Origin: a virus
Lineage: Duplodnaviria > Heunggongvirae > Uroviricota > Caudoviricetes
Direction: 5' to 3' (one strand)
Length of the DNA: 37,371 nucleotides
IMG/VR virus record: IMGVR_UViG_2579779116_000018
Location: 1 to 37,371 of that record
A program made the position numbers and the translations under genes. Below, piece by piece: positions 1 through 31,694 of this stretch (position 1 is the stretch's first letter; each line of letters begins with the position of its first letter). A model generated the notes under the pieces. That model did not search any database, was not told the origin of the DNA, and saw only the letters and a program-made list of their open reading frames with translations.

Positions 1-270
1 ATGAACATTACCAAAGCAATCCATAACTATGCTCGCCGCCGTGGAATCGAACTTCAACTCGAAGATGAGCAGGTTAGATTCTGGGAGATAGAACAAGATT
101 GTGAATGGATGTTCAGCTATTCGATTGCTCAATGTGGTTGCTTGTTCTGGAAAGGTAATGTGTATCTTCCTCGCGATATTAAAGAAGAACTTCCGGCGAT
201 GATTGGCACCGATAAGAAGTTAAAGGAAGTCTTAGATTTTATCTACAAAGAGTTTATTAGCAAGAAGTAA
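1..270 (+). CDS. hypothetical protein (89 aa)
   Basis: ORF starting at window edge, followed by intrinsic terminator at 281-307; no recognisable motif. May be 5' truncated by the window. Confidence 0.45.
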   Translation: MNITKAIHNYARRRGIELQLEDEQVRFWEIEQDCEWMFSYSIAQCGCLFWKGNVYLPRDIKEELPAMIGTDKKLKEVLDFIYKEFISKK

Positions 271-280
271 TTTCTAATTT

Positions 281-307
281 GGTGGGTGCAATTCCCACCG
301 CTTTTTA
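281..307 (+). terminator. rho-independent terminator
   Basis: Hairpin GGTGGG-tgcaattc-CCCACC followed by GCTTTTT directly after the stop of ORF 1-270. Confidence 0.6.
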
Positions 308-322
308 AATGGAGAATCAAAC

Positions 323-403
323 ATGTTAGCTTTTATCTCATTCGTGGGAGGTAGTCTCACAACTATGATCAGCCTTTCTTATATTGTCGTTAGTATGGGG
401 TGA
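323..403 (+). CDS. small hydrophobic peptide (26 aa)
   Basis: ATG at 323 preceded by TGGAGAA about 7 nt upstream; product MLAFISFVGGSLTTMISLSYIVVSMG is hydrophobic. Below the ORF-track size cutoff; found by hand. Confidence 0.3.
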   Translation: MLAFISFVGGSLTTMISLSYIVVSMG

Positions 404-406
404 GCA

Positions 407-532
407 ATGAAACAATTTCATGATGGCATTTCATCTAAGACATTCAAGAAAGAATATAGCGGATTGTGTATTAACTGGATTGATTTGATTGGTGCGGTTG
501 TGTTTGGTCTGGTAATCAGCATCAACTTTTAA
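407..532 (+). CDS. small membrane protein (41 aa)
   Basis: ATG at 407 preceded by GGGGTGAG; C-terminal hydrophobic stretch LIGAVVFGLVISINF. Found by hand. Confidence 0.35.
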   Translation: MKQFHDGISSKTFKKEYSGLCINWIDLIGAVVFGLVISINF

Positions 533-533
533 C

Positions 534-549
534 GATATAAATATATCGT
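534..549. promoter_or_regulatory. 16 bp perfect palindrome CGATATAAATATATCG (possible operator)
   Basis: Perfect inverted repeat 30 nt upstream of the start of the 578-1624 gene; AT-rich core resembles a -10 element. Confidence 0.3.
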
Positions 550-577
550 AATTCAGATAACAAGAGGAAATTCTACT

Positions 578-1624
578 ATGAAAATTAGGTTTGCGTGTGA
601 TATTGATTGGATTAAAAACAGTAGTCGTTCAATATCACCTAGTGTATTCGAATCTCGCATAATCGCTCTGTGTAAAGAAATTAACTATGAATTTCTTGGA
701 TTCTATGGTGAGTGGAAAGGGATTAAAACAAAACTTGTTCTAAAATGTAGTGAGGGGCATGTTTATAATTCTGCCACAATCGATGGATTTATTGGTTCTG
801 GGCGTCGTTGTCCTGAGTGCAAAAAGATTAATCTGGTAAAGAAAAAAATTCGTGCAATCTCTCCCGAAGAATATACGCGACGTCTTAATGATGTATGCCT
901 AGAAGATGGTTATACATTCATTGGATTCTATGGTGAGTGGAAAGGTAACGAGACAAAAGTAATCATGCGGTGTCCTCATGGTCATGAATATAACACAGCC
1001 ACTATAAACAGCTTTCTATGTGGTATTCGTTGTCCTGAATGTAAGCGAGACAAGCTAATAGCACGAAATACAATTTCTATTGAAGAGTATAACGAAAATA
1101 TAGAAAATATGTGTTCGTCTATCGGTTATGTTTATCATGGTATTGTTGGAGAATGGAAAGGGTATAACACTAAAATATCCCTTACTTGTTCGGCTGGTCA
1201 TACATTCAAGACGGCATCTATTAGAAGTTTTCTGTATAATGGTAGCCGTTGTCCTTGTTGTGCAAGTTACGGTTATAACGTGGCTAAAGCTGGTTATCTA
1301 TATGTACAGCACGTCACGGGCGAAGTTGAAGCCATTAAATTTGGAATCACCAACCGAAAACCGGAACAGCGAATGAGACAGCACATCAACCGTTCAAAGC
1401 TGAATCATGAACTTGTGTTCTCTATGAAATTTGAAGACGGGCAAAAGGCGCTGGATGTAGAAACGAGAATTAAGCAGATCTGGAAGGGGAAGACCGGATA
1501 TGTTTCAAGAGAGTTAATGGAAGATGGTTTTACAGAAACATTACCAGCCGAAATTATGAACGTTTTTTTAAAAGATGTTAAATCGATGTGCAATCTTGCT
1601 GTAATGAATATTAGCCTCGCCTAG
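578..1624 (+). CDS. protein with three tandem Zn-ribbon-like repeats and C-terminal T5orf172 (GIY-YIG-like) domain (348 aa)
   Basis: RBS AAGAGGAA before ATG. Three copies of about 50 aa unit F-x-G-E-W-K-G...T-K...C-x-x-G-H...R-C-P-x-C; C-terminal GYLYV...KFGIT.RKPEQRMRQH matches the T5orf172 signature from memory. Paralogous to 3405-4580 and 4735-5304. Confidence 0.75.
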   Translation: MKIRFACDIDWIKNSSRSISPSVFESRIIALCKEINYEFLGFYGEWKGIKTKLVLKCSEGHVYNSATIDGFIGSGRRCPECKKINLVKKKIRAISPEEYTRRLNDVCLEDGYTFIGFYGEWKGNETKVIMRCPHGHEYNTATINSFLCGIRCPECKRDKLIARNTISIEEYNENIENMCSSIGYVYHGIVGEWKGYNTKISLTCSAGHTFKTASIRSFLYNGSRCPCCASYGYNVAKAGYLYVQHVTGEVEAIKFGITNRKPEQRMRQHINRSKLNHELVFSMKFEDGQKALDVETRIKQIWKGKTGYVSRELMEDGFTETLPAEIMNVFLKDVKSMCNLAVMNISLA

Positions 1625-1637
1625 CGCGGGGCTTTTT
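1613..1637 (+). terminator. rho-independent terminator overlapping stop codon
   Basis: AGCCTCGC-ctagc-GCGGGGCT hairpin (one G-U pair) followed by TTTTT; stop TAG of the upstream gene lies in the loop. Confidence 0.6.
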
Positions 1638-1651
1638 ACTATGGGGTTATT

Positions 1652-3331
1652 ATGAAAACTAAGTTGTATTCATATATCCGCTTCTCGTCTATGAAGCAAG
1701 CGGATGGTAGTTCTTATGAACGCCAGAAGAGAACAGCGAAAGAGATAGCCGCAAAATATGATCTTGAGCTAGTTACAAGCTATCAGGATTTTGGTGTATC
1801 TGCATTCAAAGGGGCTAACAGTAGAACAGGTGCACTATCTCGCTTTCTGGATGAGATTGGTCGATCTGTTCCGGTTGGTAGCTGGCTGGTTGTGGAAAAC
1901 TTGGACCGTATCTCTCGCCAATCCATCATTGAAGCACAAGAGCTATTTCTCTCGATCATACGTAGGGGAATAACCATTGTCACTGGTATGGATGGGAAAG
2001 TGTATAGCCGCGAATCGGTTAATGCTAATCCCATCGATTTACTATTGAGTGTCATGTTGTTTGCGAGAGCTAACGAGGAAAGCCAGACTAAGCGCAATCG
2101 TACTAACTCAAGCGCACTGATTAAGATTAAGTCGCATCAAGAAAATCCCCAGAATCCGGCAGTGGCAATCGAGGAAGTTGGGAAGAATATGTGGTGGACG
2201 GATACCACTTCCGGTTATGTGTTGCCTCATCCTACATACTTCCCTGTTGTTCAGGAGATTGTGGAATTACGGAAGAATGGACGTTCAACCGCCGAAATAC
2301 TGGATCACCTTAACGAGACATATGCACCACCACCAGCAGTAAGCAACAAGAAGCATTCAAAATGGTCACGGGCAATGGTTGAAAGGTTGTTTCATACCCG
2401 CGCTTTGATTGGTATCAAGGAGGTCTCTGTCGATGGTGTTAACTATGAGTTAAAGGATTATTACCCTCGTGTTATTGATGATGCTACGTTCTATCACCTT
2501 AAGAAAAATATTGGTGCTAGAGCATGGAACTTTGGAGACAAGGAAGAAGTTAAACCGATCCCCCTGCTTAGTGGTATTGGCCTATTGAAATGTGATCATT
2601 GCGGTTGCGCTATGGTTAAAGTGAAGGGAACGAACAAACGTTCTGACCAGTATCGTTATACATGTGATGCGACCCGTTCACGTAGACTTGATTGCGAGCA
2701 TCCAAACTGGAGTTTTCGAGGTGATCAATTAGAGAAAGCTGTATTGCAATTGCTGGCTGATAAAATCTGGATTGCTGAGGACAAGGCTAATCCGGTTCCG
2801 GCGTTGAAAGTACAGGTTGATGAAATATCACGCAAGATTGATAACCTGATTGCCCTTTCTGCTATGACAGGAGCAACGAAGGAGCTAGCCGATCAGATTA
2901 CTACCCTCAATAGCGAGCGTGAAACACTCTACAATCAGATCAAGATGGCAGAAGAGGAAATGTATTCTGTTGACTCTCAAGGCTGGGAGAAGCTCGCAGA
3001 ATTTGATTTAGAAGATGTTTACAACGAGGAACGACTAAAGGTCCGGTTTAAGATTAAGCAAGCTCTAAAGCGGATCGGGTGTAGCAGGATTGACAGAAAC
3101 AAAAACTTGTTTGTACTGGAATACATCGATGGAAAGACCCAGAGAGTTGTAATAGAAAATTCAAGAGGAACGAGGAAAGGACAAATCTTTGTCGATTTGA
3201 AAACTATCAATGATAGGCAGATTCTGGAGAGTAACGGGCTTGTTCTGCATCCATGTTTAGACATGCTGACAGATAAGAACTGGAAACCAGAAGAGGAAAT
3301 ACCAGGTCCATTACAGGAATTTGGAATTTAA
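1652..3331 (+). CDS. large serine recombinase (559 aa)
   Basis: N-terminal resolvase-type catalytic domain (YSYIRFSSMKQ with candidate nucleophilic Ser), recombinase domain, Cys-rich zinc ribbon CDHCGC...YTCDATRSRRLDCEH, and C-terminal coiled coil: the typical large serine recombinase architecture. Confidence 0.9.
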   Translation: MKTKLYSYIRFSSMKQADGSSYERQKRTAKEIAAKYDLELVTSYQDFGVSAFKGANSRTGALSRFLDEIGRSVPVGSWLVVENLDRISRQSIIEAQELFLSIIRRGITIVTGMDGKVYSRESVNANPIDLLLSVMLFARANEESQTKRNRTNSSALIKIKSHQENPQNPAVAIEEVGKNMWWTDTTSGYVLPHPTYFPVVQEIVELRKNGRSTAEILDHLNETYAPPPAVSNKKHSKWSRAMVERLFHTRALIGIKEVSVDGVNYELKDYYPRVIDDATFYHLKKNIGARAWNFGDKEEVKPIPLLSGIGLLKCDHCGCAMVKVKGTNKRSDQYRYTCDATRSRRLDCEHPNWSFRGDQLEKAVLQLLADKIWIAEDKANPVPALKVQVDEISRKIDNLIALSAMTGATKELADQITTLNSERETLYNQIKMAEEEMYSVDSQGWEKLAEFDLEDVYNEERLKVRFKIKQALKRIGCSRIDRNKNLFVLEYIDGKTQRVVIENSRGTRKGQIFVDLKTINDRQILESNGLVLHPCLDMLTDKNWKPEEEIPGPLQEFGI

Positions 3332-3367
3332 GCGGCCTAAATCGACGTATAACGAGCTAAAACAGTT

Positions 3368-3396
3368 AAGGGGTACATTCGTACCCCTTTTTAATT
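3368..3396. terminator. bidirectional intrinsic terminator between convergent genes
   Basis: Perfect hairpin AAGGGGTAC-attc-GTACCCCTT followed by TTTTTAATTT; sits between the recombinase stop (3331) and the minus-strand gene stop (3405). Confidence 0.7.
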
Positions 3397-3404
3397 TAAT
3401 TGCA

Positions 3405-4580
3405 TTAGAGAGCGTTTAAGAGAGTATTAAAGTATTCATCCATTAAATCAGGATTGTTGTCATCAATACAGAAAAATTCCGGTTTATTGATGCCGTAGAA
3501 GTGAGTATGTAGCTTGAATGTATCGTCATCAAATACATCTTTCGGAGATACCCACATATTAGCCTCGTCCGGTTGATTGGTTAGGTAGTCATAAACCAGT
3601 TGCTGTAAGTGCGGCAACTCATCAATAGTCAGAGTTTCCGACCATCCATCCTTGAAATCTTTGTAGGGTGCTGCATGAGTCTTGAAGCGTTGTTTTACTT
3701 CATGCTCTAAATCGGCAGCTTTCCAACCATCCTCAAACTCATGAGTAAAGATTAAGCGGTGAGTGAAGTTGCTCTTTCTGGTTTGTTCTCTCATTCGTTC
3801 TTCTGGTTTTCGGGTAGTGATTCCAAATTTAATAAATTTGTCATCTAATAATTGAATGTAGAAACTAGCCTTACCCTGATAAGTCCGGTTAGACAGTTGC
3901 ACCAGTTGGTCTTTAATGCAAAGCGGACAAGTGAAAGAATCAGCACATCTTAAATGAGATTCCCATTCGTGGTTATGTGACTTGCAATAGGTTTTAAATT
4001 TAACATCCTTTAGGTGTGGGGTGTTTATGGTAAATCCTTTGAAGATGTAAGGTGTAGTCTCGCAACGTGCATTGATGATTGTCTCTTTGTCCTTAATAAC
4101 TTCATCAAAAGTCTTGCCACTTCTTACCCGTTGGGATTTTTCAGCCATACAGATTTTACAATCAAAATCAAAATCATCCTTGAGAGCATGTAATAGAGAT
4201 GGCGTCATGATTTGATTGTGTATAGGACACAAAACACGGGCTTTTGTCTTGTTGCGCCCTTTCCATTCTCCTTGCCATCCTAGAAACTTCTTTCCCTTCT
4301 CATTACAACGAGATTCCATTTTCAACCATACAGCCTTTTCAGTCTGGAATAACTCACCCCCGTTAGTATCTTCCAGTTTGCGTAATTTGTAGTCCTTATA
4401 TTCTTGTGTATCTAAATTGTAGATTCGAAAGTAAGTGTGATTACCCTTCCACGGTAGGATAAATCCACCAAATACGAAAGCAGGTTCCAGTTTAGCGATG
4501 ATTCGTTGTTGGTACTCTTCCGGCGATAAACCGCGAGTTTTCTTAACAAAAGGAATTTCGGCAGCGTAAGCAAGTTTCAT
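3405..4580 (-). CDS. Zn-ribbon-repeat / T5orf172 domain protein, paralog B (391 aa)
   Basis: Start moved from ORF-track 4691 to the internal ATG at 4578-4580, which has RBS AGAGGAAACTACT upstream and gives an N-terminus (MKLAYAAEIPFVKKTRGLSPEEY) matching the paralogs. WKG/C...CP.C repeats and C-terminal FYIQL...KFGITTRKPEERMREQ. Confidence 0.75.
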   Translation of the reverse strand: MKLAYAAEIPFVKKTRGLSPEEYQQRIIAKLEPAFVFGGFILPWKGNHTYFRIYNLDTQEYKDYKLRKLEDTNGGELFQTEKAVWLKMESRCNEKGKKFLGWQGEWKGRNKTKARVLCPIHNQIMTPSLLHALKDDFDFDCKICMAEKSQRVRSGKTFDEVIKDKETIINARCETTPYIFKGFTINTPHLKDVKFKTYCKSHNHEWESHLRCADSFTCPLCIKDQLVQLSNRTYQGKASFYIQLLDDKFIKFGITTRKPEERMREQTRKSNFTHRLIFTHEFEDGWKAADLEHEVKQRFKTHAAPYKDFKDGWSETLTIDELPHLQQLVYDYLTNQPDEANMWVSPKDVFDDDTFKLHTHFYGINKPEFFCIDDNNPDLMDEYFNTLLNAL

Positions 4581-4639
4581 AGTAGTTTCCTCTAAAATAA
4601 TAAGTTCACTACTATTTATTAGAGAAAATTGTCTTACTA

Positions 4640-4667
4640 TTGCATTCTCTATCTGAATGTGTATAAT
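4640..4667 (+). promoter_or_regulatory. putative sigma70 promoter for the 4735 gene
   Basis: TTGCAT (4640-4645), 16 bp spacer, TATAAT (4662-4667), in the divergent intergenic region 4581-4734. Confidence 0.4.
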
Positions 4668-4734
4668 ACGCGACCCTAAATCCCAAACCAACCATATTGA
4701 GGTTATGCCTATAAGTTAAAAAAGTGAGGTCTAT

Positions 4735-5304
4735 ATGATTCCAGTAATGGCTAAAGATATTGTTTTTACTCCTAAATCCTCCCGTGCTGTAACTCCATCG
4801 GCATTAGAACAACGCATTCTGACTCACATCAAAGATAAGGACTTACCATTAGTCTTTCATGGCTTTCTGGGTGAGTTTAAAGGGCTTCATTCAAGAATTG
4901 CTCTAACATGTACCCGATGCGGTAATAGAGCCGACAAATCAGCTACTAACCTGCTTAATGAAGGTAAACGATGTGTTTGCTTCAATAGTGACTACTTTCA
5001 ATATAAAGCGGGTGTGCCTTATCTCTATGTAATGAAGTCTGGGGATATTGGTAAATTTGGTGTTACAAAGTCAATCATCAAGCGACGTGTTAATCTGGGT
5101 GTACGCAATCCCGGTCATAACTTTGATATTGTCTTTGCTGGTGAAATGCCATCAATGAAACATGCTTTAGCCACTGAAAGAGCAATAAAGAGATTACTGG
5201 ATGTGGGTATAGGCGGGATTGAATACGGCAAAACTGAAACATTCCACTACTGCAATAAATCACTAAACAATATAAAGAATATTGCAAGTGTGGAGTGGAA
5301 CTAA
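4735..5304 (+). CDS. Zn-ribbon / T5orf172 domain protein, paralog C (189 aa)
   Basis: RBS GTGAGGT before ATG; one GEFKG...C..C...RCVC repeat and C-terminal PYLYV...GKFGVTKSIIKRR T5orf172-like segment. Confidence 0.75.
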   Translation: MIPVMAKDIVFTPKSSRAVTPSALEQRILTHIKDKDLPLVFHGFLGEFKGLHSRIALTCTRCGNRADKSATNLLNEGKRCVCFNSDYFQYKAGVPYLYVMKSGDIGKFGVTKSIIKRRVNLGVRNPGHNFDIVFAGEMPSMKHALATERAIKRLLDVGIGGIEYGKTETFHYCNKSLNNIKNIASVEWN

Positions 5305-6794
5305 TGCAAGATATTAAAATTCATTTTCAAGATTACAGTTTCGTTAAGGTTGATTGCTCTCCTTCTATCGGAATGGAATTAAGAGATTATTTCTCTTTTG
5401 AGGTTGAAGGGGCTAGGTTTAGCCCCCGATACAAGTATTCAGGCTGGGATGGACGAATAAGACTGTTTACGCATGAGAATACCCTACCAATTGGACTATT
5501 AAAAACGTTGGGTGTCTTTGTTAAAAATATGGGGTATTCAGTCTGGATTGACCCGCGATTGCTTGAGAAGGAAGATGTAACCAAAGAACAGATTGATTCA
5601 TGGATTGATTCTTTAGAAGTGTATTCCGGTAGCAATAAAATCAATCCTTACTGGTATCAGCGTGAAGCAGTCTTTCAGGGTATTCATAATCGCCGTAGAA
5701 TGCTGGTTCTTCCTACCAGTGCGGGTAAGTCATTGATTGCTTGTATGCTGTCTCGTTGGTACTTAGAGCATTACACCGGAAAGGTGTTAATCATTGTCCC
5801 GACTACATCGCTAGTGGTTCAAATGAGGGATGATTTCATCGATTATCGGTTATTCCCTTATGAAGCAATCCATACAATGATGAGTGGTAGCGGGAAACAT
5901 CCGGGAGACAGGTTAATCACGGTTAGTACCTGGCAATCAGCTTGCAAGATGCCTCCTGAATGGTTCAAACAATATGGAATGTTGATAGTTGATGAATCGC
6001 ATAAGGCTAGTGCCAAAAATATTACCAATATCATTAACGGAATGAATCATTGCCAATTTAAGATCGGCATGACTGGTTCCCCGAAAGAATCAAAGTGCCA
6101 TTTAATGCAGTATGTCGGGCTTTTCGGTGATATTTCCAAGATCGTGAGTATTGACCGCCTGATGGAAGAAGGGCAGGTGACAAAACTGAAAATTAACTGT
6201 CTTTTCCTTCGTTATACCGATGAGGAATGTAGCGCGGTTAAGGGGAGAGAATATGCGGAAGAGATCAAGTATATTACATCTAACCCACGACGTAATAAGT
6301 TTGCTTGCAATTTGGCGCTAAAACTCGCTAAGAAGGGCGAAAACGTATTCCTGATGTTCCGCAATACTAAGCACGGAAAACTTATGTATGACGCGTTACA
6401 GAAGGTACACGACAAGGTTTATTATATTGACGGTGGAGTTAAGACAGAAGAACGTGATGAATTTAAGAAAATGGCGGAGGGTGACACCGGGATCATTTGT
6501 GTTGCGTCTTATGGTGTGTTCTCTACTGGTGTTTCAATTAAGAATTTGCACCATGTTATTTTCGGTCATCCAGTGAAGGAATCAACTATCGTTCGTCAGA
6601 GTATCGGTCGTGCATTGCGTAAACATGGTTCTAAGGATATTGCAACGGTCTGGGATCTTATAGATCATCTGTGTATATTCGGTCGTAACGGAAAAATCAA
6701 GCATAAAAATTATGCGGTAAAACATGCACTTGAGAGAATCCGCTATTATCTAACCGACAAGTTCAGATATGCAACTAAAACAATTGCTATATAA
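5304..6794 (+). CDS. SF2 DEAD/DEAH-box DNA helicase (about 496 aa)
   Basis: Walker A LPTSAGKS, DESH box (LIVDESHKAS), motif III MTGSPK, motif VI VRQSIGRALR. Start taken as ATG 5304 (RBS GGAGTGG) rather than the ORF-track GTG at 5295. Confidence 0.85.
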   Translation: MQDIKIHFQDYSFVKVDCSPSIGMELRDYFSFEVEGARFSPRYKYSGWDGRIRLFTHENTLPIGLLKTLGVFVKNMGYSVWIDPRLLEKEDVTKEQIDSWIDSLEVYSGSNKINPYWYQREAVFQGIHNRRRMLVLPTSAGKSLIACMLSRWYLEHYTGKVLIIVPTTSLVVQMRDDFIDYRLFPYEAIHTMMSGSGKHPGDRLITVSTWQSACKMPPEWFKQYGMLIVDESHKASAKNITNIINGMNHCQFKIGMTGSPKESKCHLMQYVGLFGDISKIVSIDRLMEEGQVTKLKINCLFLRYTDEECSAVKGREYAEEIKYITSNPRRNKFACNLALKLAKKGENVFLMFRNTKHGKLMYDALQKVHDKVYYIDGGVKTEERDEFKKMAEGDTGIICVASYGVFSTGVSIKNLHHVIFGHPVKESTIVRQSIGRALRKHGSKDIATVWDLIDHLCIFGRNGKIKHKNYAVKHALERIRYYLTDKFRYATKTIAI

Positions 6795-6796
6795 CA

Positions 6797-6827
6797 AAAA
6801 AGCGCCCACTAGAGGCGCTTTAATTTT
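6797..6827. terminator. bidirectional intrinsic terminator
   Basis: AGCGCC-cactaga-GGCGCT hairpin flanked by A-run on one side and T-run on the other, between convergent helicase and M15 peptidase genes. Confidence 0.65.
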
Positions 6828-7179
6828 ATCCATTCCATCGTGATTTTTTCGATCTGGAATCGATATGCGTAAAGGTTTTATATTTGCCTAAGCCGTATTG
6901 AGTAGGATATTTCCCATCAAGATAAGCATGGACAATATCAGGGGAGACACCCTTGATCACAATGTCAGCCGCACGGCCTCGAACGTGATAGCTGTTGGTT
7001 GCACCGCCTACATTCTTGTTATGAGTTGGGCAACGGTTCCCACTGTTAATAATTACTGGTTTCCCGAAGTGTTCGCGTACATCCTCAAGAATTACCAGTA
7101 ATTCAGCGTCGATTGTATCATAATCACATTTTCCACATTTACATTTAAATTCCTTGCGAGAAAAATGTTTGCTTAACAT
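6826..7179 (-). CDS. peptidase M15-family zinc peptidase, candidate endolysin (117 aa)
   Basis: N-terminal LSKHFSRKEF and SGNRCPTHNKNVGGATNSYHVRGRAADI ... THID match the M15 (VanY / L-Ala-D-Glu peptidase-like) metal-binding signature; strong RBS TAAGGGGGT; last gene of the late operon. Confidence 0.7.
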   Translation of the reverse strand: MLSKHFSRKEFKCKCGKCDYDTIDAELLVILEDVREHFGKPVIINSGNRCPTHNKNVGGATNSYHVRGRAADIVIKGVSPDIVHAYLDGKYPTQYGLGKYKTFTHIDSRSKKSRWNG

Positions 7180-7188
7180 ATTACCCCC

Positions 7189-7536
7189 TTAGATCATTTC
7201 GAAGATATAACCAATAAAGCGCATACCCTTGATATAATAAGGAGCAGTGCCTACACACACCGCGCGTGCATCACCCAGACAGTTAAAGCTATAAGGATTA
7301 ACTACATCGACTTCTTGCCCGACACGAAAACGATACTTAGGACGTTTAGCCAATGTAGCGACACAAAACACGGTCCCTTTTTCATGATCGCGGATACATT
7401 CTTTATATTGTTTATGTTTAACTCTCTTCGCCTCAAAATCATAGGTCATTGATTCTGGGCTAATGCCATTAATAAAAATACCGGAAAGCTGATCGACCGG
7501 ATAAGTAGGAAATTCAGTGAAAATATTTTTAGCCAT
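7189..7536 (-). CDS. hypothetical protein (115 aa)
   Basis: RBS TGGGGGTATAAC before ATG; tightly packed in the late operon; no motif recognised. Confidence 0.6.
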   Translation of the reverse strand: MAKNIFTEFPTYPVDQLSGIFINGISPESMTYDFEAKRVKHKQYKECIRDHEKGTVFCVATLAKRPKYRFRVGQEVDVVNPYSFNCLGDARAVCVGTAPYYIKGMRFIGYIFEMI

Positions 7537-7574
7537 GTTATACCCCCATAAGATTCTATGAGGGTATTTATGGA

Positions 7575-8258
7575 TTAAACGTATTTCATGCGCGATTTAA
7601 TGTGCTTATTAATGTTCTTAAGCATCATTTCCTCGTTGCTTTCCCACGATCCTAGCGTCGAATAACGAGTAGAAATTTTATCCGATTTAACGGCAACAAT
7701 TCGCTTACTCTGTTTCTGGATGCGTTTCTCTAAGCGACGTTTTGCCACCGCCGATCCATTCCTAGCGCGTTTGGTTCGGGATTTCTTAGGCTTGTACTTC
7801 TTCATGATAAAAGTCCCTTCCTTGTTCTCTACCTTGATGAAGTTGCCGTTTTCGATGTTACGCATCATCTTACCGCCTTTGATGGCCTTAATGTTCCCGT
7901 GGGAGTCTAAGACCTTACCGTTGGCGATTGGAACTAGCTTATTGATTTTGCCCCCATCGAAATAGTGTTTCAGATAGTCGTCCTGACTGCCGATCTTCTT
8001 GTCCTTATCCCTTGCGCCCTTGATGAAGATTTGGTGTCTGGTCCCTGATCGGTTCTTGTAGTTGGTATTACCTACAGCTTGCTGAGTCCAGCGAGTAGGT
8101 CTATCAACATTCTTGTTAATCTTCTTCTGGAGTGCTCTGGAAGCAAAGATCGCCCCTTCCCCTAGTGCCCTTTCGAATGTATCGGTTGCCTTTTCAGACC
8201 ATTGCCGTAACGCTTTCTTAGTCCTTAGAGCGTTTCGTTTATTGGTACTGGTTGCCAT
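7575..8258 (-). CDS. hypothetical basic protein (227 aa)
   Basis: RBS AGGGGGCTAAC before ATG; Lys/Arg-rich; function unknown. Confidence 0.6.
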   Translation of the reverse strand: MATSTNKRNALRTKKALRQWSEKATDTFERALGEGAIFASRALQKKINKNVDRPTRWTQQAVGNTNYKNRSGTRHQIFIKGARDKDKKIGSQDDYLKHYFDGGKINKLVPIANGKVLDSHGNIKAIKGGKMMRNIENGNFIKVENKEGTFIMKKYKPKKSRTKRARNGSAVAKRRLEKRIQKQSKRIVAVKSDKISTRYSTLGSWESNEEMMLKNINKHIKSRMKYV

Positions 8259-8833: not shown

Positions 8834-11800
8834 TTAAGAAACAGTAATACCGGTAGTGGCTTTTTTAGTTACCATTACAGTTAAATCACTGATCCATGTG
8901 CTAGGCGTCCAGTTGTTGATTGCGCTTGATTGCACTTCAAAGGTCAAGGTCACAGCACCTTTACCCGCTGGCATATCAATAACACCTGAGTAAAGACCAG
9001 TATTACCGCCATACGCCCTATTATACAACTCTGACCCATTCTTACGAACAATAAGGCGACAGGTGTCGTAATAGGTATTATTGTTCGACCCTTCACGCGC
9101 TCGCAATCCACCAAAACTAATTGCCGGAATAACGATTTGACGATCGAACTTGTGATCATCTTCAACGCGAACAGTGACCGTACCCTGTGGATAACCAGCA
9201 TAACCAGTATCAACGTTAACATCACGATGCGGGAACTTACGTCCAATCACCTTAACGAAATCACCCTTAACCTGAGTAGCTTCGAGCATACCCTTAATAA
9301 CACAGCTAGAGTTAATCGTGACGTTGTTCAGAGTACCAGAATCAGCAGTGATATTACCTTTAACGGTTGCATTCATGAACGTAGCGGACCCGTTCTTGTT
9401 GATATGCCATCCGGTCGATCCGTTCCAGTTGGAAGACTGGATATAGTTACCGATTTTAGCGTTATCAATTGCACCGTTTACGATCTTCGCGTTAGTGATT
9501 GCCCCGTCCTGAATCTTCGCGCTGTTAATTGCAGCATTGCCGATTTTAGCCGTGGTAATCGCCGCATCATTAATCTGGGCTGTACCAATTGCAGCATTAC
9601 GAATCATCGCATTATCGAGATAAACCTTGTTACCTTCGATACCAAACGGGCATACTTCCGATCCGTTCTGTGGAGCTACCGCGATTTTATCAGCATTAAA
9701 GATGATTCTCGTCGGTTGCGCCGGATCGTTGGTTGCGCTCATGTGAATACCAGCCACGCGACCATCTGCATTAACTGCCAGATTGTATTTGCTGTTAATG
9801 GTTCCTTTCAAAGCATCGATTTTTACATCTGCTTCCTGATTCACACCAGCAATCTTGCCATCCATTTCTACCCGAACTTGATCAATCTTACTTGCGCTTG
9901 CTGCCTCACTGGTAGCAATAGCTTGTTTCAGGGTAGTAGCAGATGCGCTAACTTCTTTGGTGATATCGCCTTTCAGTTCAGCTTTAACCTGATCAATCTT
10001 AGTTGCACTGGCTTGATCACCAGAGACAATAAGACTCTTTAAGGTATCGGCTGAGGCTTGCACCGTCTGCCCTGTTTCGGTAGTGATTTGCTTATGCATT
10101 GCATCAATTTTAGCATCGGCATTAGCGCCAGCTTGAGCAATAGCATCCGCGATAGTTTCATCTAAGCGGTCTTGTAAACCAATCAGGTCTTCCAGTGCTT
10201 CTTTGTCCTGATCGTCCCAGCTAATGGTAGATTTCATTTGCATGAAATACGGTTCAGACCAAACAGCATCATCCATACCGAAAATATCGTAGTGAGCACC
10301 ACGGATATAATAATCACCGTCTGCCAAATCAAAGGAAGTATGGCTAACACTATTCGTGCTTACCGCCCTTGCATCGGAGAAAGTGTTATCGGTTGCATAC
10401 TGGATGATTGACCCTGCATAGTCATGTTCTACGTCATCCGCCCAGCTAACAAACGCAGTATTAAAGCCACCACGCGCACTAAAACCTTTCATTGGCTTAT
10501 GTTGTGGGTTGATAGCCACTAAACGCGCTGGGGCGCTCTCTGAGTTGTTATAGCCCTTAGCCGATACTTCTACCGTCAGTTGACGCGAAAGGCCGTTAAA
10601 CTGGTTCATATCAAGCGTATAAGTCCATGATTCAGGATCGCGGGTACGGTACTGAATAGACTTACCAGCCTTGTTAGTCACCTTGATAATGTATGCTTCA
10701 AACAGGTCACTAAACTTGTTAGTTTCACCGTTGATCTCAACATCTAAGCCTTGCTGGTTTTCCCATTCGATAATCAGATCATTACCTTCGAAAGTTCCTG
10801 GCGTGCTACCCTGATTTTTGATTCGAATAACCGGAGTCGGCAATTCATAGGTAACAGTCGGATTCTGGTTAATCAGTTCTACCCAATCGGATCGAGCGAT
10901 GATACCGAAAGCACAAACTCGGTAATCATAAGAGCGATCTTTAGCCAGTGCGTTGACACTGAAAATTTGCTGTGAAGTCTGTCCCAGCTTAATCCAGTTA
11001 GGCGATCCACTTACACGGTAATCAATCTGGAAACCGTAGCGGTTAAAATCTTCCGGTGCGTCCCATGTCAAAGTTACGTTTTTACCGTGGATTGTCTCAC
11101 CAGTTGCCTTAATTCTGAAATTAGTCGGTTTCTGTACTGTCATTGAATCCGGTAAACCGCTTGGTCGGTTGTCTGGGTTAGCCGCATAGTTCAGGTCAGT
11201 ATAAACCTGAGAATTATATTCTGTGGCAGTGATAGTCATCATCCCAGCAATACCAGAATCAATCGAGCGATCAATTGCAGTAATACGCCATAAGGAATTA
11301 TTCAGCTTCAATTCATCATAGGTTACGCTGATAACGTCCCAAACTTCGGCAGTGAATGCGTCAGTAGTCATAAAGCTGATAACCTGAGTGATACGAGATT
11401 TATTTCGTTCAATGCTCGCAAGTTTATCAATCTGGTCTTTAGACTTAACAAAACGATATTCAATATCTTTAGCGATAATTCGACCATCTTGACGAATAGT
11501 AGCATCGTTTTCAGCATCAGCCGGATAACGTAGCATTTGCTCTGAATAGTCGATTGATGGTTCTTGATACATCGCGTTAATGGTATTGAAATAACCGTTA
11601 GTGCCACCTGTTTTCAGTGATACCTTACCCATCATGATATTGTCTTCATTGAAGGTATGCTTAACAATATCAGGAGCATCCAGTTTCAGGGTAATACGTC
11701 CAAAGGATTCGAACATCACCCCGCCGAAAGTCTGCATAAGGCTAGTCAAGTTCTCTTTAAAGCTGGCGTTCGGATCACATGCACCGTTTGAATGTAGGTC

Positions 11801-13075: not shown

Positions 13076-13846
13076 TTATTTCTTGAAGTCTTCGTACATT
13101 CTACGAAGGTTGTATTTTGGATGGCCTAAGCTAACCATGATTTGACTCAATTTAACCGCGCCGGGTTTACCGTTTTCAATCCACACGCGCCGGATTTCAT
13201 CGTAATGCTGCCAACAGCCTTGACCTTTAGCAATACGTATAGAATGTGTATATTTCTTGGTAGAGCTTTCTGGTCGCTTGCGCCCTAGATGTGCTTTTCT
13301 AATCTTTTCGCGTGTTTCTTCTGATACAGGTTTACCATAACGGGGGTTATTCTCTCCACGAGTAGCAGCCGATAATTTAGCTAATATTTCTGGGTTTGTT
13401 ACTTTTTTGCCTCTCATTGCACTAGGTTTACCATAGCGATGGTTCTTTTCACCCATTCGAGATGCCGACATTTTAGCTCTAGATTCCGGTGTATGTTTTC
13501 TTCCGTAAAAAGGATGATTTTCACCACCATCAAAACCACCGACACCACCAGGAGCTATATTAAGACATACACCACGCCCCCATTTTTCGCGTGCTGCCTC
13601 CACTAACAGGATTTCACATTCAAACGCTTCCTCGGCAGTATCAAACAATTTTGAACGAACAACTTCAAATTCATATATCGGGGTTTCTGATTCTTTATTT
13701 TTACGCTTCATCATTTTAATAACTTTACCCGATCCCACATATCCATCGTCTAGATTTGTGGTTGTTCTTTTTCCGACGTAATGATAGATTTTACCAGAGC
13801 GATTAGATTTAATAGTGGTGTGATAAACGTAATGGAATTTTTGCAT
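13076..13846 (-). CDS. GIY-YIG homing endonuclease with NUMOD3-type repeats (256 aa)
   Basis: N-terminal HYVYHTT...SGKIYHYVGK...GYVGSG (GIY-YIG module) and three copies of N-x-P-x-Y-G-K/R-x-x-S/T-x-E-T/S-R-x-K-I/M (NUMOD3-like DNA-binding repeats); own RBS; inserted between minor tail genes. Confidence 0.85.
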   Translation of the reverse strand: MQKFHYVYHTTIKSNRSGKIYHYVGKRTTTNLDDGYVGSGKVIKMMKRKNKESETPIYEFEVVRSKLFDTAEEAFECEILLVEAAREKWGRGVCLNIAPGGVGGFDGGENHPFYGRKHTPESRAKMSASRMGEKNHRYGKPSAMRGKKVTNPEILAKLSAATRGENNPRYGKPVSEETREKIRKAHLGRKRPESSTKKYTHSIRIAKGQGCWQHYDEIRRVWIENGKPGAVKLSQIMVSLGHPKYNLRRMYEDFKK

Positions 13847-19478: not shown

Positions 19479-22400
19479 TTATTTAGTTGCTTTGAGTTCG
19501 GCTAATTCAGCTTTCGTTTCGGCAAGTTCTTTAGCCATAGCATCAAACTTAGCGCTCATTTCCTGAAACGCCTTAATTAAAAGAGCGTTGACAGCAGAGT
19601 TAGAAATTGTTAAGATCTCTTCTGGCTTATCAGGATCGCCGATCTTAGAAGTTGTTACTGCTTCCGGCAATTCTTTTTCAAGATCCTGAGCAATAATACC
19701 AACTTCATGAGCGATAACAGTGCGGTCCGTCAAAGACTTAACCTTATCGTAGGTGTACACAGTCAAGCGATTAACTTTATCGGTGGCATTCTCCTTATAC
19801 TCTTCCTTGTTGATTTTCAGACGAGCATCAGAACGAATATAAACATCGTTAAAGTTACCATTGCGTCCAGCTTGGAAATCACCGGAGGCGTTAAAGTCAA
19901 AGTTTGTGGTATGGATATGAAGACGTGCCATAGCATTAGTAATAACACCACTAGGAACGTGTACACCCATTGCCGCGATGTGGTCTAAACCCCATTTGGT
20001 CGCTTTCCATACGTTATATGCGGAAGTTTGAGCATTAGGACAATCAACCAATAAGCCAGCAGCGCGAGTTTTCCATTCTGACCATGCACCACCTTGTACT
20101 TCTCCGCGAATCAAACCACGGTCGCTACCGTTTGCATACCCACGTTCTAAGCGAATCATACCAGTCTGGAAAACATGGTCAAATTCTCCGCTGTTATAGT
20201 TTCGAATGCGCATTTGACCTGAGCCATCACCCCAGATAACACCACGGTTAGTACCATTAGCATCCTTAAACCAGAGTTCTTTATTACCATCTCTATACAT
20301 CTGAATTTGGTTATTGGTACGCAAAACATTAGTAACCACCAAATCACCATTTATCCGAGCACGACCACCCGTTTCTAAACTACCAGCAACTCTGAATTGA
20401 ATCGAACCGTTAGAATCACGCTGAGAATATAGATGATAGCTTGTTTCGTCAGCAAGTTCCCACACCTGAGCGCGAGTTTCATTACCCCAAGATTTAACAA
20501 AGAATACAGATTTCGATCCTTCGTCGTTACGTTCCCAATACAGTCTGCTTCCAAGATGTGTGGTTGCGTTCACTTCAACTCGTTTACGTTCGTTGTTGAG
20601 ACGCATTAAATGATTACCAGCATCGCTACCACCTAGTGTAACGTTACCATTGGCTAGGCTATAGATGAACGGCCTAAAGGTATTCCACGGACCCATAGTG
20701 TCGCCTGATTTTGTGCTCATCAGATAAACGTTACTACCGTCATTTCGCCACCATGAACCATAGTTACCATATACAGTACGGAAGCCATCAGCATATAAAG
20801 AAATGAATTGACCGTTAGTATAAACTCGCTTCATATTGCCAGTTTGAAGTTCTATCTGGCCGTCAATATGTTGACGAATAGAACTACCGCCTACATCACT
20901 ATACCATTCAAAAACGTTAGTATCAGCATTGGCATAACCGATCCATCCTTGACGAGTAATATCTCCAGTACGATTATCTTGAAACGCAATATGGTTGGAT
21001 TGACCAGCAGGTCGGCGTAGTGTAATGGCATTAGATCCGCCATTTAACAGCATACGACCAGAAATAATATTACCTTTATGAGTCCCAGCAATAGAGCTAC
21101 TAGATTCAACGGTTAGAATATCCTGAGCATCAGTGGCACCAGTAGCCAGACGATAGCTGGCACCTTGAACAGTCTCATGCCAGATCATTTCATTATAGTT
21201 ACTACGGAATTTACGAATATATTTCCGTCCAGTACCTCTATCATTGCTTAGATGAACAATGTCATAGCTGTTTTGTGTATTGTCGTCAAAACTCAACACA
21301 CCACGTTTATTTTCGGTGTTGAAAAGAGTTACGTTGCGACCACCGATAACACCAACGGAAGGTTTAATTAACGTGGCTTCCGGCGTATCATAAACCGTCA
21401 AACTTACATAAACAGATTTCCCATATTCGACAATAACGTTATCGGTATAACGCTGATATTTCACGTAGATATCATAGTTATCACCGGAAGTATTGACAGC
21501 AAATACCTCAAAATCTTTGTTTGTATTTCTACGGTATGCAATTACGTTAAGACCTTTAGGTCTATCGTTACCACTACGCAGAAGAATTTCTACTACGTCA
21601 ACCTGATCATATGCCGTAACGCTGTAACCATTACCACCATGAATACGGAAAAACACACTACGCCCGTTTTGTGGAATTGTTGCGGTTGCCAATTTGAAAT
21701 ATGCAGATACGTTTTCGCTAGAATTAGGAACAGACATAACGACGTTTTTAACAAACATCTTATCAACTTCTGCTTTAGTGTATGCACCAATCTCGCCAGG
21801 AGTCGGCTTATCACCTTCGTGATACATCTTATAGCTAAAGTTCTTCTGTCCTTCTCTATCAAAACCATAGGTTTCAACACGAGATCCACCAGACGCATAA
21901 CGGAAAGTAAATCCGCGACCGTGCGCTTTACCGGCAGAATGAGGAACGTTAAGGGTCAGATCCATGAGTCCATCTTGTCCATTGGTACGGAAAGCACCAA
22001 AGTAGTTAAGATCTCGCGCTGTCTGATCTTCCAGATAGTTAGCTGTCTTGCTTAACAAATACCCGCCATGCTTAGTATTGGTATTCTTCTTGATGTAAGC
22101 AGCATCGGCACTACCTTCAATAGAATCAATTCGCTGGTTAGCTGCGGCAATTGCGGCATCAGTAGAAGATTTATTCTGGTCTACCTTGTTGTTAATAGCG
22201 GTATGGTTGCTGTTAACAGTGCCAGTAAGGTTACTGATTTTAGTATCAGCATCTTTCTTGTTGTCGGAAACGACCTTTTCAATCGCTGTTTTGTTAGCTG
22301 CAACCGTGCTAGTTAAGCTAGAAATTTTGTTATCTGCATCGGTTTTATTTGCAGTAACAGTTTTAGTTAAGTTGCTAACGTTGGTGTTAGTGGTATTAAC

Positions 22401-22928
22401 TTTGTTGTTAATCGCGGTGTTATTGTCATTAACCGTCGTGGTTAAAGCTGCGATTTTATTGTCCGCATCTCGTTTATTATTTGCTACAGTAGTTTCTATA
22501 GCTGATTTGTTAGATGCAACTGTCCCTGTAAGGTTATTGATCTTAGTATCAGCATCGGTTTTATTTGCCGTGACTGTCTGGGTTAAGTTACTAACCGTGG
22601 TGTTAGTAGCATCAATGCGCTTATTGGTCGCTGTATCTTTCGTGGTAATAGTCTGATTCAGTTCAGCTTTAGCACTAGCCAGATTATTAGCGGCTTCTTG
22701 TTTGTTGGAAGCAATAACACGGTCAGTGCTAGTTTTGTTATTGTCTACTTTCGTATTCAGTTCAGCGTGTTTTTCTGGAGAAACACTAATTTGGACTACG
22801 TTATTATTTTTGTCTTTGGTGTAAATCACATGATCCGCCAACTGTAAGGCGATTTCACCCTGTGATAATTGTTCCGGCGTTGGTTTTTTACCAGCCGTTT
22901 GTGTGCGTTTAAATTGGATTGATTGCAT
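19479..22928 (-). CDS. fibre protein with C-terminal intramolecular chaperone (peptidase S74) domain (1149 aa)
   Basis: C-terminus SDARLKINKEEY...VIAHEVGIIAQDLEKELPEAV...LLIKAFQEM matches the auto-cleaving chaperone domain of T5 L-shaped fibre / endosialidase type; N-terminal third is Thr/Asn-rich tandem repeats; KPTPGEIGAYTKAEVD motif. Confidence 0.85.
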   Translation of the reverse strand: MQSIQFKRTQTAGKKPTPEQLSQGEIALQLADHVIYTKDKNNNVVQISVSPEKHAELNTKVDNNKTSTDRVIASNKQEAANNLASAKAELNQTITTKDTATNKRIDATNTTVSNLTQTVTANKTDADTKINNLTGTVASNKSAIETTVANNKRDADNKIAALTTTVNDNNTAINNKVNTTNTNVSNLTKTVTANKTDADNKISSLTSTVAANKTAIEKVVSDNKKDADTKISNLTGTVNSNHTAINNKVDQNKSSTDAAIAAANQRIDSIEGSADAAYIKKNTNTKHGGYLLSKTANYLEDQTARDLNYFGAFRTNGQDGLMDLTLNVPHSAGKAHGRGFTFRYASGGSRVETYGFDREGQKNFSYKMYHEGDKPTPGEIGAYTKAEVDKMFVKNVVMSVPNSSENVSAYFKLATATIPQNGRSVFFRIHGGNGYSVTAYDQVDVVEILLRSGNDRPKGLNVIAYRRNTNKDFEVFAVNTSGDNYDIYVKYQRYTDNVIVEYGKSVYVSLTVYDTPEATLIKPSVGVIGGRNVTLFNTENKRGVLSFDDNTQNSYDIVHLSNDRGTGRKYIRKFRSNYNEMIWHETVQGASYRLATGATDAQDILTVESSSSIAGTHKGNIISGRMLLNGGSNAITLRRPAGQSNHIAFQDNRTGDITRQGWIGYANADTNVFEWYSDVGGSSIRQHIDGQIELQTGNMKRVYTNGQFISLYADGFRTVYGNYGSWWRNDGSNVYLMSTKSGDTMGPWNTFRPFIYSLANGNVTLGGSDAGNHLMRLNNERKRVEVNATTHLGSRLYWERNDEGSKSVFFVKSWGNETRAQVWELADETSYHLYSQRDSNGSIQFRVAGSLETGGRARINGDLVVTNVLRTNNQIQMYRDGNKELWFKDANGTNRGVIWGDGSGQMRIRNYNSGEFDHVFQTGMIRLERGYANGSDRGLIRGEVQGGAWSEWKTRAAGLLVDCPNAQTSAYNVWKATKWGLDHIAAMGVHVPSGVITNAMARLHIHTTNFDFNASGDFQAGRNGNFNDVYIRSDARLKINKEEYKENATDKVNRLTVYTYDKVKSLTDRTVIAHEVGIIAQDLEKELPEAVTTSKIGDPDKPEEILTISNSAVNALLIKAFQEMSAKFDAMAKELAETKAELAELKATK
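22070..22720 (-). repeat. in-frame tandem coding repeats within the fibre gene
   Basis: Protein-level repeats of the type TVTANKTDADTKI(N/S)NLTGTV..N.TAIN(N)KV recur several times; nucleotide repeats visible. Approximate bounds. Confidence 0.6.
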
Positions 22929-30828: not shown

Positions 30829-31431
30829 ATGCTAATTAATCAGCAACAAAGAGATGAATTAGAATTAGCCTTGTCTTGTACCGATCATGAATATCGTTTA
30901 CCAGTTAAGCATAAGCATTTAAAAACCGACTACACAACATCTGGCTTTAGTCGTGAGGAAGCGAAAGAGATTTTAATCGAGTTGTATCGCGATCATGGGT
31001 ATACCGATATTCATAACTTCTTTAAGAAGCATCGCACATCACAGACAGAGTTTCGGAGAGTCCGAGATTGGTTTGATTTTGATATCAAGCGTTATTATCG
31101 CATTGATGACGGTCCTATCTATAGGTTGCAGTGGAAGCCGATCCGAGAAGTGTTGAAACAGAAGAGATTGAATCACGCTATTACACGCTATCGTAACGTG
31201 GCTTTCAAGAAAGGCTATGGTGATACAAGGGAATTGTTTGTAGAACTCGCTAACGTGCGTTATAGCCACTATTACAACGATCCTAAAGGGTTCTTTGAAG
31301 TGCTTCGCAAGGTTGATATAAGTCGGGGGACATACTATTCACGGTTGAAGAAGTACGGGATTAAGGCAGAGTTCTTTATGTCGGTTGACGATGGAGAACT
31401 TTTTCCGATAAAATGTAAGTCCTCTAAATAA
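30829..31431 (+). CDS. hypothetical protein with C-terminal DNA-binding-like motif (200 aa)
   Basis: RBS AAAGGGGGTT; C-terminal RGTYYSRLKKYGIKAEF resembles the motif in 31467-31694 and 34911-35093. Confidence 0.6.
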   Translation: MLINQQQRDELELALSCTDHEYRLPVKHKHLKTDYTTSGFSREEAKEILIELYRDHGYTDIHNFFKKHRTSQTEFRRVRDWFDFDIKRYYRIDDGPIYRLQWKPIREVLKQKRLNHAITRYRNVAFKKGYGDTRELFVELANVRYSHYYNDPKGFFEVLRKVDISRGTYYSRLKKYGIKAEFFMSVDDGELFPIKCKSSK

Positions 31432-31466
31432 AGGTGAACATTCACTTTAATTTGGAGGAAGTAACT

Positions 31467-31694
31467 ATGACTACTAAAGCTACTCGCGGTCGCCCTGCCC
31501 GTTTTAACGCTGAACAGATGGCTGATATTGCCTACGCTTACTATACAGCGGATCGTGGTAAGGAAGCGAAAGAACAGATTCTTAGTGAACATGGGATCTC
31601 AATCGCCCAATTCTATAAGAATATGAAGAAGTTAGACATTAAATTCTATGTTCAGATCGGTGATGGTCAGATCGTAGAAGCAACAGGTTTTTGA
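31467..31694 (+). CDS. small putative DNA-binding protein (75 aa)
   Basis: Start at ATG 31467 with strong RBS GGAGGAAG; N-terminal TRGRPARF (AT-hook-like) and C-terminal IAQFYKNMKKLDIKF motif. Confidence 0.55.
   Translation: MTTKATRGRPARFNAEQMADIAYAYYTADRGKEAKEQILSEHGISIAQFYKNMKKLDIKFYVQIGDGQIVEATGF

Follow-up and report, generated by a model that had tools for sequence, protein, structure and literature searches.

A large serine recombinase of an uncultured Escherichia coli prophage lineage, the probable integrase for insertion into ycdX

Introduction

Large serine recombinases (LSRs) with solved structures include the Listeria A118/LI integrase (4KIS), the PhiC31 integrase (9RAH, 4BQQ), an integrase together with its directionality factor (9DXF/9DXH) and the catalytic domain of the TP901-1 integrase (3BVP). 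The same domain order was found in the product of a gene in IMG/VR virus record IMGVR_UViG_2579779116_000018, a Caudoviricetes sequence of 37,371 nt that was analysed over its whole length and is hereafter called the window. This 559-aa protein is very probably (about 0.88 by our own estimate) the enzyme that integrates a temperate prophage of siphovirus type, 37,783 bp long and seen here in the integrated state, with the bacterial attachment (att) site, attB, in ycdX, target specificity in aa 196–351, and the two hairpins beside the gene acting as terminators.

The window LSR and the solved integrases are also alike in their serine nucleophile, the DRxxR motif, short and imperfectly symmetric att sites and a non-palindromic 2-bp core, and a model of the window LSR aligns with the solved full-length proteins over about 580 columns (E 4e-15). 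Sequence identity to them is 13–16% only, and the window LSR differs in having an extra beta-rich C-terminal domain of about 100 aa and an enterobacterial host; its phage attachment site (attP) lies 0.9–1.7 kb from the gene, whereas attP is adjacent to it in the phages of the solved integrases.

Insertion of LSR-carrying elements inside genes is well known from A118 in comK, from SPbeta, with its recombinase SprA, in spsM, and from the skin element, with SpoIVCA, in sigK. The window lineage resembles these elements in inserting within a protein-coding gene and truncating its product (YcdX, shortened to 141 aa, HicB or CodB), whereas its target genes differ and no sign of developmentally regulated excision or of use as a host switch was seen. 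Among cultured phages, full-length homologues covering 80–94% of the query were the serine recombinases of Burkholderia phages JC1, Bcep176 and Bcep22 and the YbcK-like LSRs of the lambdoid E. coli phages 4A7, Perceval and D2, the nearest of them at 28–31% identity only. YbcK-type genes lie inside lambdoid genomes, whose integrase is a different one; the window LSR, in contrast, is found at a prophage end.

The boundary-based definition of attP and attB used in the catalogues of Durrant et al. 2022 (PMC10083194) and Integrase-On-Demand (PMC12884075) would recover this element. Its att sequences and LSR peptide strings were not found in the supplementary text of PMC10083194, a text that is possibly incomplete, and PMC12884075 does not mention ycdX or hicB. 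In a literature search of incomplete coverage we found no publication on this integrase or its sites, or linking ycdX, hicB or uvsW with an LSR prophage; the ycdX lesion described in PMC7046640 is a 4-bp frameshift, not a prophage.

Identification and domain structure of the recombinase

The gene and the domains of its product are as follows; domain limits are approximate.

1652–3331, plus strand: LSR (integrase) gene, an intact open reading frame (ORF) of 559 aa
1652–2143, plus strand: catalytic N-terminal domain and long helix (aa 1–164)
2144–2551, plus strand: recombinase domain (aa 165–300)
2552–2767, plus strand: zinc ribbon (aa 301–372)
2768–3007, plus strand: coiled coil (aa 373–452)
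3008–3328, plus strand: C-terminal beta-rich domain (aa 453–559)

An earlier note, made from the letters of the window alone, had ascribed the full LSR architecture to this gene, and profile matches, invariant residues and the predicted fold all bear this out; the end that it gave, 3404, takes in the downstream hairpin and not coding sequence. Pfam searches identified Resolvase (aa 6–153, E 2.8e-15), Recombinase (aa 198–287, E 4.4e-9) and Zn_ribbon_recom (aa 310–368, E 1.1e-10), each exceeding the curated cut-off, and the PHROGs match was phrog_95, 'integrase' (E 1e-60). The catalytic domain of PDB entry 3GUV aligned with the N-terminus (YIRFSS versus YTRVST), identifying Ser12 as the nucleophile of the YxRxS motif. 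In an alignment of 36 homologues, with identity down to 39%, the catalytic residues R10, S12, D85, R86 and R89 were invariant, as were the zinc ligands C314, C317, C338 and C348; the degenerate catalytic serine region that would have spoken against an active recombinase was thus not seen. Both the catalytic domain and the pairing of recombinase domain and zinc ribbon that define the LSR class are present.

The AlphaFold2 model (mean pLDDT 77.6) placed a long helix (aa 127–164) after the catalytic domain, followed by a mixed alpha/beta recombinase domain and the zinc ribbon, past which two long antiparallel helices (aa 382–406 and 410–436) form the putative coiled coil, and then the additional C-terminal domain. 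A Foldseek search with this model returned full-length serine integrase complexes as the top PDB matches (9dxf/9dxd/9dxh, E about 1e-14, best 4e-15), as well as the PhiC31 integrase 9rah and the LI integrase–attP complex 4kis (range 4e-15 to 6e-9), and resolvase and invertase structures covered just the first 150 aa or so (ranks 18–31). The coiled coil and overall fold predicted by the model are those of the LSR class. A small serine invertase or resolvase of the Hin, Gin or gamma-delta type (about 180–200 aa, catalytic domain plus helix-turn-helix) is ruled out by the length of 559 aa and the recombinase and zinc-ribbon domains.

Ratios of nonsynonymous to synonymous substitution rates (dN/dS) between members of the LSR family were 0.13–0.21, the pair formed by the window and a codB-type relative (L030) having been left out of the comparison owing to an indel. 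Homologues at 87–94% identity number in the hundreds in E. coli and Shigella assemblies. The window ORF is taken to encode a true large serine integrase, carried by a prophage in the integrated state. A 99% identical LSR fragment also occurs on a 512-nt contig (JANCAF010000145.1) assigned to the actinomycete Actinacidiphila cocklensis and is almost certainly a contamination.

Integration of the prophage into ycdX

Whether integrated copies exist in host genomes, the check that the earlier note had named for an integrase, was answered by the window itself. It is identical, with no mismatch over all 13,331 overlapping nt, to contig JDFV01000029.1 of the E. coli-type draft genome GCA_000622265.1. 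On one end of this contig (stretch L005, in which position 8350 equals window position 1) a 3' fragment of ycdX was found 42 nt before the window start, and on the opposite end (stretch L035) a 5' fragment lies 368 nt beyond window position 37371; these last 368 nt are prophage, giving the total of 37,783 bp. The host genes read csgG-ycdZ-ycdY-ycdX' at one flank and ghrA-'ycdX at the other. Because fragments of ycdX border the prophage at both ends, the window is a prophage in the integrated state that splits ycdX, and not a free phage. Two genes mark its ends.

1–270, plus strand: first prophage gene, 89 aa, phrog_6147, function unknown
36811–37371, minus strand: terminase small subunit gene, last gene at the other prophage end (phrog_57, E 6e-15)

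The same ycdX junction was present in nine of ten independent contigs and in at least 27 of 5,426 complete E. coli genomes, among which window positions 1–8000 were matched in 58, every one of these matches being chromosomal. Among listed complete genomes that lack the prophage, the ycdX match ends within a few bases of the core, and the site is intact in most of the genomes listed. A Salmonella relative with a 75% identical LSR carries its prophage at the homologous ycdX position.

The backbone comprises a GpA-type large terminase, a lambda-type portal, a protease–capsid fusion, a tape measure protein and a gpJ-type tail tip, a complete packaging, head and tail gene set; the best terminase match among cultured phages was 43% identical only. 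A virulent T4-like context, suggested by uvsW matches at 80–90% nucleotide identity to Krischvirus, is ruled out by the structural genes of lambda/HK97/siphovirus type and by chromosomal integration. Metagenome scaffold L004 (37,466 nt), considered as a circular phage form, begins with 55 nt of hicB and is an integrated copy broken near the junction. The small terminase gene is about 6 kb from the large terminase gene (28839–30743, minus strand), with a Rha-type gene, an iteron region and several unknown genes between them.

Attachment sites

The att sites were derived by comparing intact ycdX of E. coli K-12 with both junctions of the related prophage of strain BS74R-D, and the junctions of the source genome were read from its contig.

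attB (K-12 ycdX; core at ycdX nt 400–401): CATCCCGGA-AA-TCCCAAATATG
ycdX attB stretch: TGCTTCAGCAACGGCTTTCACATCTATTTCATATTTGGGATTTCCGGGATGGCTTATTATATGCACATTGCCGCTGGCGATA
attL (BS74R-D): CATCCCGGA-AA-CCCGAACGTAG
attR (BS74R-D): GATATTAGGG-AA-TCCCAAATATG
Junction at the window start, window orientation: ...CATATTTGGGA-TT-CCCTAATATCATGTACCC...
The same junction region up to the first gene start, 1–44 nt outside the window: ...CATATTTGGGA-TT-CCCTAATATCATGTACCCATCAACACACGAGAGGATACAACG, then ATG at window position 1
Second junction, past the window end: ycdX...CCCGGA-AA-TCCAAGATTAGTAAACCCCCAATAAC
Second junction, other rendering: CCCGGA-AA-TCCAAGATTAGTAAACCCCC
Reconstructed attP: GAATAAAAATTTTAGTTATTGGGGGTTTACTAATCTTGGA-tt-CCCTAATATCATGTACCCATCAACACACGAGAGGATACAA
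attP around the core, window orientation: ...GGGGGTTTACTAATCTTGGA-TT-CCCTAATATCATGTACCC...
attP stretch: GAATAAAAATTTTAGTTATTGGGGGTTTACTAATCTTGGATTCCCTAATATCATGTACCCATCAACACACGAGAGGATACAA

Between BS74R-D and K-12, AA were the sole bases common to attB, attL and attR at the crossover, and no target duplication was found; a non-palindromic 2-bp overlap without target duplication is a signature of strand exchange by serine recombinases. The overlap with attB in the source genome is longer, AATCC, and contains the same AA. The core TT lies at positions 8306–8307 of L005, 43–44 nt before window position 1, and the same junction was found in three further contigs (L001, L020 and L027). The attP arms are imperfectly symmetric, with GGGT...GG on both sides and 9 of 20 positions alike by manual comparison, and no copy of an att arm was found inside the window. 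These comparisons point to distinct, short attP and attB sites with a 2-bp core, as in other LSR systems. A junction of the tyrosine-integrase type is ruled out by the 2–5 nt common to the ends, by the position of the target inside ycdX and by the annotation, which has no tyrosine integrase in the prophage.

Measured from the integrase ATG, the attP core lies 1,695 nt upstream, and about 0.9 kb upstream in relatives without the inserted endonuclease gene described below. All 38 related loci carry the recombinase gene, always in the same position with respect to the prophage end, and in 26 of 26 IMG/VR relatives it lay 0.9–1.7 kb from the contig end. It is thus located at the end of the integrated element on the attP side, though further from attP than in textbook cases.

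Bases beside the core are polymorphic among prophages at the same site (TT-CCCTAA versus TT-GCCTAA, and AA-TCCAAGATTAG versus AA-CCCGAACGTAG), as judged from the arms of L005/L035 compared with those of L001/L012, L010, L016, L018, L020 and L027. Several of the variants look attB-like, and the variation may reflect polymorphism of attP itself or an exchange of sequence where phage and host DNA meet.

Target-site variants and the proposed specificity segment

Related prophages use two further sites in the same host. Insertions in hicB, the antitoxin gene of HicAB, were found with LSRs 87–93% identical to that of the window in PE15, ETEC1717, L3Cip3, metagenome scaffold L004 and the 24 contigs of cluster P0005, and hicB insertions occur in at least 17 complete genomes; in our set of loci the hicB-site prophages are L016–L018, L022–L026 and L004. 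Crossover was located within AAACCTAAA (hicB nt 304–312), and the C-terminal part of HicB is lost. An LSR of 79% identity goes with prophages (L030–L033) that split codB at about nt 364–365. BS74R-D (NZ_CP063332.1) is doubly lysogenic, its two prophages occupying ycdX and hicB. The three attB sites are alike around the core (GGA-TT-TCC, GGT-TT-GCC and GCC-TT-ACC in window orientation), and the attP arms of the variants keep the outer GT.AACCCC and GGG..AC motifs and vary in their inner bases.

A comparison of four ycdX-type with eight hicB-type LSRs (12 sequences) gave 103 variable positions, 22 of which were diagnostic for the site. All 22 fell in aa 196–351, 13 in the recombinase domain and nine in the zinc ribbon; none was found among the 50 variable positions outside these two domains, including the 35 in the catalytic domain. 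The N-terminal alleles MKQADG... and MRQNDG... each occur with either target. An earlier form of this signature, with 34 positions, predicted the sites of clusters P0001 (ycdX) and P0005 (hicB, 24 contigs) correctly before their context was looked up.

2237–2704, plus strand: att-specificity segment inferred from the comparison (aa 196–351), with all 22 ycdX/hicB-diagnostic residues, in the recombinase domain and zinc ribbon

We therefore infer that the recombinase and zinc-ribbon domains determine which target is used. The co-variation of LSR alleles with the target is the strongest argument for the LSR as the integrase. A further reading is tentative, and we hold it at a little under even odds: closely related integrases (79–94% identical) may have been retargeted naturally to ycdX, hicB and codB in the same host, the switch between ycdX and hicB being confined to no more than 22 exchanged residues, all in the recombinase domain and zinc ribbon, with co-varying inner attP arms. 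If this is true and the residues suffice, the family would serve as a small map, validated by nature, of the way in which LSRs encode their target specificity and can be reprogrammed. Insertion in hicB might also couple lysogeny to HicAB toxin–antitoxin control.

By analogy with the biochemistry of serine integrases, an LSR dimer on attP and another on attB would synapse through their coiled coils, Ser12 would cut all four strands in concerted double-strand breaks at the central AA/TT, and one half-complex would rotate by 180 degrees before religation of the ends to attL and attR, with no target duplication. The choice of target would lie with aa 196–351, alleles of this block going with ycdX, hicB or codB and alleles of the catalytic domain assorting independently. 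Excision would presumably require a directionality factor.

These findings settle the gene as an integrase of working type in a widespread, uncultured prophage lineage of E. coli and Salmonella, with concrete sequences for both attP and attB. Genome engineering has a practical use for serine integrases that are native to E. coli, and the natural ycdX, hicB and codB variants, with few differences in their DNA-binding domains, form a ready data set on site choice. The case also holds a caution, in that an apparent phage without att sites beside its integrase was an integrated prophage whose ends lie just outside the window.

Alternative explanations

Several observations weigh against the assignment as integrase of a live prophage. 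Recombination, excision and lysogeny by the LSR are predicted activities, and present-day inducibility of this prophage copy is putative. No cultured phage resembling the prophage was found in the phage collection, and an intact attP, marking an excised or free form, had no match in IMG/VR; ten matches in metagenomes of the Joint Genome Institute were unrelated chance matches without BLAST similarity to the prophage, and none was an intact attP. The distance of 0.9–1.7 kb from attP to the gene is unusually long compared with textbook serine-integrase phages. The crossover was pinned to 2 bp only in BS74R-D-type prophages; in the source genome it could lie anywhere within 5 nt, and at hicB anywhere within 9 nt. 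Truncated LSR genes occur in a few related genomes. Synonymous divergence (dS) is also raised in the aa 196–351 block and its 22 positions are linked, not independent observations; since dS is raised there too, the block appears to act as one exchanged module and not by 22 independent changes.

The rival that survives best, though we consider it unlikely, is that the LSR of this copy is a relic in a defective or domesticated prophage that no longer integrates or excises. The absence of an excised attP form and of a cultured relative in the collections searched, the lack of a recognisable repressor or replication module, the truncated LSR genes or insertion sequences of several related genomes and the many endonuclease-like insertions in the backbone speak for it, whereas the gene is full length and has kept every catalytic and zinc residue, purifying selection acts on the family and the packaging, head and tail gene set is complete. 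Spread over many lineages, three sites and two genera, with the ycdX site intact in most of the genomes listed, moreover argues for recent repeated integration. Of the three options left side by side in the earlier note (integrase, remnant or cassette recombinase), the first is strongly favoured by the copies integrated in ycdX; the remnant is improbable for the family, given its dN/dS, and stands as the rival for this particular copy.

Two other proposals are very improbable. An unrecognised recombinase might integrate the phage, with the LSR serving DNA inversion or multimer resolution as may be imagined from the YbcK-type LSRs of lambdoid phages; the nearest homologues in cultured E. coli phages are indeed YbcK-like (31% identity), genes of this type, as known from DLP12, sit inside lambdoid genomes and are not their integrases, and attP does not directly adjoin the LSR gene. 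Against this, no further integrase or recombinase appears in the RefSeq annotation of the BS74R-D prophage, taken over its full length, the 2-bp junction overlap without a longer common core is in the style of a serine and not a tyrosine integrase, the insertion site varies together with the allele of the LSR DNA-binding domains, and no inverted-repeat pair able to define an invertible segment was found near the gene. The third option, a small mobile cassette of the LSR and flanking T5orf172/CapR genes in which the LSR moves the cassette and not the phage, can draw on the position of the gene amid three endonuclease-like genes and on the existence of LSRs that are transposases of small elements, but fails on the constancy of the LSR in all 38 loci while the flanking genes vary independently, each in a subset and in differing combinations, on the extent of the DNA bounded by LSR-type junctions, which is the whole 37.8-kb prophage, and on the lack of an att-arm repeat inside the window.

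Hairpins flanking the recombinase gene

The perfect inverted repeat at 3368–3396 and the dyad at 1613–1637 had been put forward in the earlier note as the nearest att candidates, with the remark that both also look like terminators. Both elements exist and the terminator likeness was confirmed by a terminator scan and by folding against shuffled sequences, but the real junctions lie outside the window, as given above.

1613–1633, plus strand: intrinsic terminator of the inserted endonuclease-like gene 578–1624, with an 8-bp stem followed by TTTTT (terminator scan)
3368–3389, both strands: intrinsic terminator acting in both directions, set between the LSR gene and the convergent gene at 3405–4580 (minus strand), with a perfect 9-bp stem, a 4-nt loop and then TTTTTAATTT

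In each, a GC-rich stem leads into a run of T. Folding gave -13.6 kcal/mol for the first hairpin, the weaker of the two (z -1.5 against shuffles), and z values of -4.4 and -4.1 on the two strands for the second. The prophage runs uninterrupted across 1613–1637 and 3368–3396 in the integrated state, and because both elements are unbroken there neither is attP, in agreement with their terminator features. In relatives that lack 578–1624, those at the same target site included, a different hairpin (GCCCCTA...TAGGGGC and a T-run) was found at the same place upstream of the LSR gene; since its sequence differs among relatives with the same target, the upstream hairpin fits a terminator rather than a recognition site, and it is the termination function, not the sequence, that appears to be conserved.

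Endonuclease-like neighbours

The earlier note spoke of flanking T5orf172 genes, a description that held for one of the three endonuclease-like genes near the LSR gene (within the mechanically called ORF 3405–4691, minus strand) and not for the other two, in which CapR was the only domain found.

578–1624, plus strand: endonuclease-like gene of 348 aa with CapR repeats, located between attP and the LSR gene as an insertion that varies among relatives (Pfam CapR x3; phrog_681, 'endonuclease')
3405–4580, minus strand: GIY-YIG/T5orf172/MUG113-type endonuclease-like gene, variable accessory, 391 aa from the ATG at 4580 (Pfam CapR, MUG113 and T5orf172; phrog_681)
4735–5304, plus strand: short CapR-domain endonuclease-like gene, variable accessory, 189 aa (CapR only, phrog_681), overlapping the start of the uvsW-like helicase gene

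The mechanical ORF 3405–4691 begins at a TTG at 4691 and comprises 428 aa; in relatives the annotated or called length is 391 aa. These three genes and the uvsW helicase gene each occur in a subset only of the 38 related loci. A homologue of the 578–1624 product at 90% identity or more was present in just one, BS74R-D having an 81-aa ORF in its place, and the gene is outside the integration module. The 3405–4580 product had a homologue of about 97% identity in about 11 loci, and 4735–5304 and uvsW are present or absent together among relatives.

Repressor, regulators and iteron region

The earlier note saw no repressor, only a Rha-family gene, and at the profile level this holds. Searches of Pfam, PHROGs and PDB sequences with the small ORFs of the 30.8–37.4 kb region identified no CI/Cro-type repressor, and the sole repressor-related profile match (Pfam, PHROGs) was the Rha/antirepressor-type protein encoded at 31870–32700. 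No homologue of a directionality factor was recognisable, the small ORFs near att being without family matches. Two small paralogues at 34911–35093 and 31434–31694 (both plus strand; 33% identity, E 3e-6) share a GRPxxF...F.K..KK.DIK motif, which also occurs at the C-terminus of the product of 30829–31431 (plus strand). None of the three has a Pfam or PHROGs family match; they are possible DNA-binding regulators or directionality-factor candidates.

The 1.35 kb between 33556 and 34910 contain no ORF of 80 aa or more in the window and no called genes in ten relatives. This region holds at least eight phased copies of TTTCAGGGGCAAAAAT (34204–34393, spacing about 11/21 nt) and four copies of TCTAGAATCATCTAGTA (33785–34003). 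Its possible roles are those of origin, operator array or packaging site, and it is a regulatory candidate; an Rfam search of the window, iteron region included, gave no match.

T4-like genes and tail fibre

The UvsW-type helicase gene, at 5295–6794 (plus strand), has 80–90% nucleotide identity to Krischvirus uvsW, and a UvsY gene was found in some relatives (L020 at 10143–10310, L029 at 10133–10540). Amid the tail gene cluster, a NUMOD3-type homing endonuclease gene (13076–13846, minus strand; phrog_314, E 4e-32) is the fourth endonuclease-like insertion in the prophage. The tail fibre gene (19479–22928, minus strand, 1149 aa) is, over its C-terminal 2.5 kb (19553–22061), 82–92% identical at the nucleotide level to gp37 of Krischvirus, the distal subunit of the long tail fibre, with matches to the virulent T4-like phages ELT4, JEP8, GEC-3S, RB49 and Phi1. 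This similarity points to a recent exchange of receptor-binding fibres between a temperate prophage and virulent myoviruses.

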